From: Parachlamydiales bacterium
Lineage (GTDB): Bacteria; Chlamydiota; Chlamydiia; Chlamydiales; JAJFMK01
Reading direction: 5' to 3'
Assembly: GCA_963765145.1 (NCBI GenBank)
Contig: CAVXVG010000018.1
Location: 64,001-128,000, forward strand
Length of the DNA stretch: 64,000 nucleotides
Shown here: positions 164-1,971 of the stretch, piece by piece
Position numbering within the stretch: position 1 is the first letter of the stretch
How the letters are laid out: every line of letters begins with the position of its first letter
Program-made: the position numbers and the translations under genes
The notes under the pieces: model-generated
Database searches by the model: none
The model's input: only the letters and a program-made list of their open reading frames with translations
Told to the model about the DNA's origin: nothing

Positions 164-1971
164 ACATCTACCGATCAGTTCAAGTGGCCTTAAAAAAAGT
201 CCAAGAGCATCTTGAGCCAAGGGGGTTTTTTGCAAAGGTTAAAAGCTTAATTAAAGCGCCTAAAAAAGCGCTATCTAAACTGCAAGATCATGCAGACACC
301 ATTCACAGGTGGAAAACAAGCCACAACGAAGCAGAAAGGAAACTTTCTGATAAGGCGCTTGCTGTGATTGAACAATACAATGGCAAGCACCATACGATTG
401 TTTTTACTGAACCTGCTTCTCATGACTCTTCTGTAGGCATTCCGCCTCAAGAGGGGCCAGAAATTGCCCCAGAAATAGGAGAAACCGATCTTTTTAGGAT
501 GAGAGTTTTTCAGATTCTTAATAAGGAGATGGGGCTTTCGCCTAAAGAAATTTTTTCGTTAAACCAAAAACAGCCGGAAGCGTTTAATTTGGAGGGAAGA
601 GTTTGTCTCAAACAAGATTTCCAGATCTTTCCTGGAGAAACGGTTCGCGTATCGGTCAATTTTGAACGAAGAGAAACTTCATTGCCGCGCGAGTTATTTG
701 TGGGCATTAAAAGCACTCAAACAGGTTTTCCAGATCCACTTTTTTGTTTTGGATTTGCATTGCCAGAGGCCTTTTTGCCAAGACTTCCAAAAAATGCAGA
801 AAAATATCCCCGTTATTGGGCGTTACTAAGAAGGAAGGAGGCTTTAGCAAAAGCACTCCTTCCTAGAGGTGAAAAGAATTTAACGGCTAAGCGTCTTCTT
901 TCGGTTGAAAGGTCTCTTTTTGGAAAGAATCCTGAGCTTTACCAAAAGGGACTTTCTTCTCTCTTGACCACTCTCTTGGGCCACGACCTTCTCCCCCCTC
1001 TCTTTGGAAACGAGGTTCACGGTCACGAGGTGCGAAAGGCTTCCGTTCTCCACCGCCAAATCCTCTTTCCCCATCTCTTGCAAACGGAGGTCTTGGAGTC
1101 CACTCCCTCCGCTCTCTTGGCGGGCCGCGGTCTGAAAACCTGTTGTCCCGTTGAGGGCGATCGGAAAATTCTCTACGACGATCTCCGAAAGAAGCATCTC
1201 TTGCGAAACCCCCTTCTCTTTGACCTTCTCGCGGAGCCCTATCGAAAGATCCAGATTCTCTACGATCGTTGGAAAAAGAAGGCCGAGGAGCACGATCCCC
1301 AAACGGCCGAGGAGCTCTTGAGAATTCTCGAGGACTGTCGTCCCGGCTTGGCCGTTGGCCAAATGGGGCAGGCCGGTCACCAAACGAGCGTTGAGGCCGG
1401 TCGCCAAATGAGCGAGCCGGACGGTCGCCAAATGGACGAGGTGCTCTTGAAAACTCGCGAGGTTGGTCGTCACGGCTTGAACGGTCGCCAAACGGACGAG
1501 CTGGACGGTCACCAAATGAGCGTTGAGGTCGGTCGCCAAATGGACGGGATGGGCGGTCGCCATATGGGCGTTGAGGCCGATCGCCAAATGGGCGAGCTGG
1601 GCGGTCACCGTATGGGCGAGGTGCTCTTGAGAAATCGCGTGGCCCGTCCCGGTTTGGCCGATCTTGACCCCTTTGAAAGCCGTCTCTTCCTTGGTATGGA
1701 GCCCTACTTCCTGGAGCTGAGTCTCTTCTTCTATCATCTCCAAAACGAGGACGTTCGCCATCCCGGTCTCTCTGAAAAGGGCGTGGCTCTCTTCGGTCTT
1801 GCCCTCTGTCACCAAATCCTCTTCCTTGACCGGCTCGAGGGGAAAATCCTCTCTCCCGATCAGGCTTTTGCTGTTCAAATGCAGGTGGTGTTTGATCCTC
1901 TGCAGAAATCATATGATCCTCTTCTAGTTGAAATTCGAGAGATCCTGAAGGAATTTCTTCAGAATCGTTAG
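160..1971 (+). CDS. Hypothetical protein, 603 aa; C-terminal 360 aa overlap rluB on the opposite strand
   Basis: GGAGGA RBS near 145-150, ATGA coupling, about 240 non-overlapped codons of globular-looking sequence, no stop until 1969-1971. Confidence 0.75.

Follow-up and report, generated by a model that had tools for sequence, protein, structure and literature searches.

The window analysed here, a 64,000-nt stretch of a Parachlamydiales bacterium genome (G000), carries near its beginning two long open reading frames on opposite strands whose 3′ ends occupy the same DNA. The plus-strand frame at 160-1971 encodes a protein of 603 aa, here called X, and the minus-strand frame at 887-2659 encodes a pseudouridine synthase of 590 aa. 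The two run antiparallel and tail to tail over 887-1971, a distance of 1,085 nt, in the register that pairs first codon positions and places the wobble base of each tail codon opposite the middle base of an X codon. The stop of X falls on synthase codons 230/231, and the synthase tail past that point is 360 codons long. The features are given below with reference to G001 and G002, which together with G000 are the three genomes of the genus, and to L025, a metagenome contig from a near strain, 96% identical.

1-163, plus strand: 3′ end of an upstream methyltransferase-like gene (labelled by look, without an NCBIfam match), whose stop overlaps the ATG of X
145-151, plus strand: Shine-Dalgarno-like GGAGGAG, 8 nt ahead of the X ATG, read from the sequence
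160-163, plus strand: ATGA, in which the X start is common with the stop of the upstream gene, read from the sequence
160-1971, plus strand: gene X, encoding 603 aa and belonging to a chlamydial protein family that has no name
160-886, plus strand: unshared X (aa 1-242), comprising helices at the N-terminus and a beta sheet; pN/pS of 0.10-0.13 in comparison with L025 and G001
887-984, plus strand: X aa 243-275, within the overlap, aligning to the profile of 123 outside homologs
887-889, minus strand: TAG stop of the synthase tail, at the same place in G000, L025, G001 and G002
1006-1203, plus strand: X aa 283-348, a low-confidence insert mostly missing from G002; the tail frame dominates, and the G001 array lies at the insert's start
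1204-1347, plus strand: X aa 349-396, a helical segment that all three species retain, with slow change in both frames
1348-1650, both strands: species-specific tandem array of 24-nt units with a 129-nt duplication, open in both frames
1651-1743, plus strand: X aa 498-528, a helix that the three species retain; pLDDT 76-86 for aa 501-530
1756-1968, plus strand: X aa 533-603, last helices, where the X frame dominates; opposite an acidic linker and the start of the tail's R/G-rich part
1969-1971, plus strand: TAG stop of X, at the same place in all four sequences (G000, L025, G001, G002)
887-2659, minus strand: RsuA/RluB/E/F-family synthase with S4 domain, catalytic domain and 360-aa tail
890-1969, minus strand: R/G/D/P/F-rich tail, aa 231-590, with a single L/I/V/M in its last 328 residues
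880-1878, minus strand: third long ORF, 332 aa, antisense to X codon for codon, judged a by-product
2744-3433, plus strand: histidine-phosphatase-family (phosphoglycerate mutase-like) gene, divergent from the synthase, a conserved neighbour

An earlier sequence-only reading of the window had given the same coordinates for the overlap and for the plus-strand ORF, and these hold, as do its observations that X has its own ribosome-binding site and ATGA coupling and that X stops close to the end of the synthase catalytic domain (aa ~230) with the tail open for 360 further codons. The third ORF at 880-1878 was rejected as a gene: it is broken in G001 and has no Pfam match, and a stop in it would require an L/I/V/M codon in the tail, where such codons are nearly absent. 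The ATGA junction occurs in G000 and G001, and the upstream gene and X also abut in G002. In L025 (581-748, at window 163-169), and in contigs of runs X1 and X7, some 165 extra bases separate the upstream stop from X, so that the ATGA coupling is lost and X has a different start.

The synthase contains S4 and PseudoU_synth_2 domains, both with Pfam matches above cut-off, and the GRLD motif, which is the catalytic motif of the RsuA/RluB/RluE/RluF pseudouridine synthases. It scored 113.9 bits against TIGR00093 (cut-off 109.3) and 110.7 bits against the RluB equivalog model (cut-off 290), and the RluF and RsuA models scored higher, also below cut-off. The name RluB, which the protein had been given from the sequence, is a family-level label only, because no equivalog model passes: placement in the RsuA/RluB/E/F family stands, whereas the RluB, RluF and RsuA assignments all fall below their cut-offs.

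The tail was found to be 21% R, 14% P, 11% G, 11% D and 9% F, in agreement with its earlier description as an R/G/D/P/F repeat region. Synthases of Devosia and Armatimonadetes carry tails of like composition, and so do Bordetella DEAD-box helicases. Some of the tailed homologs are named 2605 synthase by their source, and position 2605 of 23S rRNA is where RluB proper acts. By analogy, the tail most likely binds rRNA and may help to tether or concentrate the synthase on assembling ribosomes. A further likeness is to IDR1/2 of E. coli CsdA, which resembles the tail in being a charged low-complexity region on an rRNA-handling enzyme, a resemblance that here is one of composition alone; the CsdA disordered regions drive condensation at rRNA operons, and their repeated independent origin has been reported (bioRxiv 10.64898/2026.09.17.752289, in the accessible part of the preprint, which makes no mention of RluB). 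No R/G/P-rich enzyme tail encoded antisense to another gene was described in the literature searched. Similar R/G/D/P/F repeat blocks are present in other chlamydial proteins (L065-L076, from G124, G018, G331, G068 and G091), in some of them at the N-terminus.

The family to which gene X belongs was found in 81 of 300 genomes from the order and comprises 197 representatives when clustered at 50%. Compared singly with the profile of 123 outside homologs, X gave an E value of 3.8e-45 over aa 36-76 and 98-275, and it shows the family's N-terminal helices, sheet and QTGFP core. Its orthologs are mostly 500-650 aa long, and not ~240 aa, the unshared length; a few lineages have short forms of 228-248 aa. 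Among the latter are G212 and G096 (L079 1548-2234, L080 1611-2357), where X is shortened to 228-248 codons and ends just before the QTGFP motif. A small gene following the synthase in genomes of 1.0-1.1 Mb, considered as a possible counterpart of X, found no support, as the profile had no match in G190 or G230. Pfam and NCBIfam searches of X returned no match, Foldseek returned none at E 0.001, and the Atlas held no usable match for X (P0001) or for P0007. A predicted structure of an outgroup member of the family aligned to mitoguardin (MIGA) 9jcw with Z 9.0-9.1 and rmsd 4.1 over 210 aligned residues, which is below the bar for a helical fold, and to MIGA 8edv with Z 7.7 and rmsd 4.5; the match was absent from the list for the X model. 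The predicted resemblance of the family core to the mitoguardin lipid-binding domain is the best lead to a function for X, though a weak and rather doubtful one.

In this register a plus-strand stop requires a tail codon xTT, xCT or xTC followed by a codon starting with A. There are 12 such pairs in synthase codons 1-230 and 0 in the 360-codon tail, as the sequence-only reading had noticed. Genome-wide, stops in this register occur at 5.7 per 100 codons, the next longest open run among the 963 long genes of the genome is 194 codons, and the X/synthase pair is the sole convergent overlap in G000 of at least 300 nt with 450 nt unshared on each side (ORFs of at least 250 aa). The X frame rarely stayed open when the tail was altered: synonymous recoding left it open in 4 of 20,000 trials with genome codon usage, 25 of 20,000 with uniform usage and 1 of 20,000 with the tail's own usage, shuffling of codon order in 0 of 20,000, and recoding without the repeat block in 4 of 5,000. 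Recoding of X, conversely, left the tail frame open in 48 of 5,000 trials for G000 and 1 of 5,000 for G001.

It had been supposed that tails of this kind should make plus-strand stops often, and natural controls did not bear this out. Unrelated R/G/D/P/F blocks of other chlamydiae, which are not overlapped, contain 2 stops in 313 codons (the synthase of G040, with an open run of 204), 6 in 360, 1 in 136 and 0 in 61; control tails from G124 and G018 were left out of this set, only 41-codon blocks with forced stops having been picked up there. Since natural tails of such composition are stop-poor in this register, the overlap's length is by itself weak evidence, and the argument therefore leans on conservation and on the patterns of substitution.

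All three genomes of the genus have the overlap, as does L025. It measures 1,085 nt in G000, 1,088 nt in L025, 1,064 nt in G001 and at least ~1,000 nt in G002, whose copy is divided between two contigs, and both stop codons align in the four sequences. X is 50% identical to its best match in G002, and the synthase catalytic domain 72%. Because both stops lie at the same places in the near strain and in two other species, the overlap is not an assembly error; the assemblies that share the stops are independent, and that of G001 is a single contig. Synthase orthologs within the genus keep the tail and its stop, and none stops near 1970. Protein records P0155 and P0157 likewise have the full tail and the same end, and a further synthase, P0158 (342 aa, from the protein record alone), has an apparent shift into the third frame and an early end.

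The tandem array is a different one in each species, placed at X aa 397-497 in G000, after aa 275 in G001 and nearer the X stop in G002. The units differ between species, yet all are in frame and none brings a stop into X. Between the G000 array and L025, 22 of 28 differences fall on the tail wobble base; the array thus changes at tail-synonymous sites, and X is therefore unconstrained there apart from staying open.

Constraint outside the arrays was examined mainly between G000 and G001, over 716 non-repeat nt, and the result accordingly rests mainly on one species pair. In the overlap pNN was 0.123, compared to 0.272 at X-synonymous and 0.202 at tail-synonymous sites, and the synonymous sites of the unshared parts stood at 0.72 and 0.51. 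The transitions at NN, X-synonymous and tail-synonymous sites were 0.055, 0.130 and 0.094 versus 0.22-0.25 in the unshared parts, and the transversions 0.038, 0.051 and 0.043 versus 0.13-0.23, with NN barely under NS. Tail-synonymous sites evolve two- to five-fold more slowly than neutral.

The dominant frame changes by segment, being that of X over its last 70 codons and that of the tail in the middle. Over X aa 533-603 there are differences at 6 of 71 X middle bases versus 26 of 71 X wobble bases (Fisher p 9e-5), the substitution pattern of a gene whose reading frame is that of X, and this on the far side of the array. In blocks of X aa 290-528, 16 of 134 tail middle bases differ, versus 121 of 238 free wobble sites in unshared X (p 8e-15), as do 30 of 134 tail wobble bases versus 89 of 229. 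Tail xCT codons that precede arginine are followed by CGN in 13 of 13 cases, and other xCN codons precede AGR in 9 of 13. The differences from L025 in the overlap favour tail constraint (pNN/pNS 0.18), with the X test not significant.

Comparison of G000 with G002 is near saturation (pNN/pSN 0.76; pNN/pNS 0.81, the second not significant). A T at the middle base marks hydrophobic codons. X middle-base T is common to G002 at 33 of 47 positions, with an odds ratio of 17.7 versus 2.8 at the same base of the unshared synthase, in G002 blocks that were chosen by alignment, which favours agreement. The plus-strand protein had also been read as amphipathic on both sides of the repeats. This stood for aa 349-396, whose helical moment was reached by 13 of 1,000 recodings, and, as a hydrophobic excess, for aa 498-602 (5 of 1,000); it failed for aa 244-277 and 278-348.

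The sequence comparisons thus suggest that both proteins are kept by selection, and the substitution patterns in each frame support the claim, made in the sequence-only reading, of a genuine overlapping pair with both frames constrained. Judged by these comparisons, the locus is a real, conserved, doubly constrained 1.1-kb antisense overlap.

The family profile reaches 33 codons into the overlap, which makes the end of the tail, at the least, an overprint on old X sequence. Past aa 275 neither hmmsearch nor hhalign extended the homology, and chained profile z values of 2.1, 0.8, 0.5 and 0.9 were not significant. The best C-terminal profile match aligned X aa 538-563 to the expected conserved helix with E 0.025 and a probability of 1.9%, a result reached by 2 of 60 shuffles. 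X segments that were picked by hand, after inspection of the sequences, ranked 43-62 and 62-138 of 2,303 control tiles (top 2-6%) in G000 and G001 and came in the right order; the hand-picked segments were unremarkable in G002, and the terminal helix segment was unmatched. From the QTGFP motif to the end, outgroup proteins have a median of 298 aa (IQR 288-307, n=98), and G000 and G001 share 311 columns. The model of the outgroup protein is confident throughout (pLDDT 91). That of X, made from an uncertain alignment, is confident at aa 1-280, 501-530 and 591-603, moderate at 361-390, and of low pLDDT at 283-357, 395-493 and 553-584. Taken together, the evidence for homology of X beyond aa 275 is suggestive only.

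Outside the genus, X is mostly 500-650 aa and not overlapped, and the synthase is almost without a tail. Of 33 outgroup loci, 23 have the synthase upstream of X and co-oriented with it, ending 0-11 aa past the match, and in 9 of the 33 the synthase lies outside the locus. In 14 of the 33, X is preceded in the same orientation by the methyltransferase-like gene. In G003, a member of the same family of bacteria, the synthase is convergent with X and has no tail, a gene of 757 aa stands between the two, and X is full length. The G003 synthase (L018 9544-10233) has an in-frame TAA after ~65 codons and is either a pseudogene or affected by a sequencing error. A gene that by look encodes an MFS-type transporter is downstream and opposite in 7 loci and upstream and co-oriented in G003, an arrangement that fits inversion of X.

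Among the 147 listed synthase matches outside the genus (150 of 278 listed), a long C-terminal tail is present only in G040. In a quick tree a single branch (support 99, length 0.71) unites the six tailed synthases of the genus, and that of G040 lies outside it. The G040 synthase (L057 1699-3735) has a tail of ~420 aa, with a basic and acidic linker followed by R/G/D/P/F repeats, and X was not found in the G040 genome with the X protein P0001 as query. The G012 synthase (L056 911-2329) carries a long S/K/P/R-rich extension at its N-terminus and not its C-terminus. Because it is restricted to the genus, the tail is derived, either by itself or as one of two derived parts. In their final 250 codons, the outgroup X genes contain 4-20 stops in the tail register.

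We consider it probable that the tail-to-tail overlap arose by overprinting, with the synthase running on over the helical C-terminal domain of X after an inversion. The ancestral order would have been that of the relatives, with the synthase upstream of X on the same strand and ending right past its catalytic domain. Gene order suggests that an inversion of X together with its upstream gene then turned both 3′ ends face to face. The synthase would have lost stop after stop, extending along the antisense strand of X's C-terminal helical domain, and selection may have moulded the run-on into a disordered tail rich in Arg, Gly, Asp, Pro and Phe. X would still be translated to its old end, its helices rewritten under double constraint. 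By the structure of the code, the tail wobble base is the X middle base, and the hydrophobic pattern of X can therefore be stored in the synonymous choices of the tail. The tail would grow by in-frame tandem expansions, as seen in three species, tolerated as loops of X so long as they are free of stops.

We give roughly even chances to the fuller proposal that an old folded domain served as the template for a new, 360-residue RNA-binding disordered tail, both proteins being made and needed. Its corollary, held with the same balance of belief and doubt, is that the tail came by convergence to resemble unrelated synthase and helicase tails in composition, that the hydrophobic pattern of the old domain now sits in the tail wobble bases, and that the arrays expand independently, species by species, and are read both ways. 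No intermediate between the untailed and the overlapped state was found, and a course in which X came first needs the loss of ~4-20 stops.

A course in which the tail came first would need few mutations, because such tails contain few stops in this register (that of G040 has 2 in 313 codons), and we judge it unlikely but worth weighing. The synthase tail would have arisen in free DNA; X would have been cut near aa 275 and fused to the antisense of the tail, run to the first stop and evolved replacement helices, with the tail later extending 33 codons into X. The absence of significant X homology past aa 275 agrees with this, whereas the shared core length fits the X family, and the weak C-terminal matches in G000 and G001 are found where, and in the order in which, they would be expected. 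A tail of this kind evolved in another chlamydial family, in which X was not detected, and truncation of X seems tolerable, given the lineages in which it is cut to 228-248 aa; G003, however, of the same family as the genus and already convergent, has a full X and no tail. The true arrays, moreover, give X sequence that is of low confidence and unconstrained, unlike the helical segments. Both this course and the favoured one, in which X came first, imply a functional two-frame overlap.

It is improbable that only the tail matters, with X working through its N-terminal 275 aa and the remainder a tolerated run-on that is kept open by inheritance, by composition or by some mild harm of a stop. 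The stop-poor controls, the insertion of ~100-codon arrays into X at three different places, the three stretches of low pLDDT in X and the L025 differences, which favour the tail and leave the X test not significant, all agree with such a reading. It is hard to reconcile with the X-frame pattern of the last 70 codons, the two- to five-fold slowing of tail-synonymous sites, the hydrophobic pattern conserved with G002 and the X stop shared by three species. An assembly artefact, which might be suspected since all sources are metagenome assemblies and repeats break contigs here, or an RNA element slowing all positions is very improbable and largely refuted, as independent assemblies (one a single contig) share both stops, the constraint is codon-position-specific and switches frame by segment, an Rfam search of the locus matched no family, and promoter and terminator scans were at chance level (7 terminator-like sites vs 5.9 expected).

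Conserved convergent overlaps that arose by stop loss were reportedly described by Rogozin et al. in 2002. As far as the accessible parts of these and the following sources go, they were also treated by Palleja et al. 2008 (PMC2478687), who regarded 124 of 178 convergent overlaps exceeding 60 nt as misannotations and 54 as possibly real, the majority of them found only in very close species. The X/synthase pair shares with such overlaps the tail-to-tail geometry and the proposed origin by stop loss. Its phase, with first positions paired, is 123:132, the commonest phase for convergent overlaps above 4 nt (49%; PMC2174442). Unlike that set, it is 1,085 nt long, spans a whole domain and is kept across species that are 50% identical in X. 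Overprinting via loss of a downstream stop is a known route (Watson et al.).

Long antisense overlaps restricted to part of a genus, as here, are olg1/tle3 (957 nt) and olg2/PA1383 (1,536 nt) of P. aeruginosa, with dNN/dNS-type ratios of 0.33 and 0.52 (p 0.11 and 0.06; PMC8850804, accessible part). There olg1 and olg2 are new ORFs on a mother gene and have Ribo-seq and proteomic proof, whereas X/synthase is known from sequence alone. In X/synthase both partners are of old families with unshared conserved domains, and what is new is the tail of a housekeeping enzyme. In the accessible parts of reports on HIV-1 Env/Rev (PMC9119678) and the hepatitis B virus polymerase spacer/PreS (PMC9093120), dominant selection likewise switches frame by segment, and the disordered partner likewise tolerates in-frame insertions and deletions. 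Those viral overlaps are same-strand, whereas X/synthase is opposite-strand and lies in a 2.7 Mb cellular genome. The literature searched, mostly open-access main texts, gave no report of the X/synthase pair or of an overlap involving the tail of a pseudouridine synthase.

Whether long antisense overlaps in bacteria are real is contested, chiefly on the ground that the second frame lacks homologs and signs of selection (10.1101/724807, accessible part). In X/synthase both genes have conserved unshared domains, the outgroups show the non-overlapped state, and selection can be read segment by segment. The pair is among the longest plausible two-strand gene overlaps in bacteria and offers a natural test of the origin of a disordered tail, of how two proteins divide one kilobase and of the adaptiveness of R/G-rich enzyme tails, on which it bears in that the tail is kept although it constrains a neighbouring domain. 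For annotators it is a warning, as overlap filters would drop or truncate one of the two genes. Convergent transcription over 1 kb should form antisense RNA, which may couple X and the synthase negatively.

One RNA run yielded a single 247-nt contig, which covers 2292-2534, outside the overlap, and has no bearing either way. Two ORFs upstream of the window (L019 3555-7327), which by look are autotransporter-like (798 codons) and transposase-like (376 codons), sit between an ABC ATPase pair and the gene that precedes X. Farther along the window, at 4506-5301, a gene that is NifU-like by look is read in two overlapping frames, 4506-4880 and 4798-5301; in G001 it is one ORF of 266 codons, and the version in the window is a frameshift or an assembly error.
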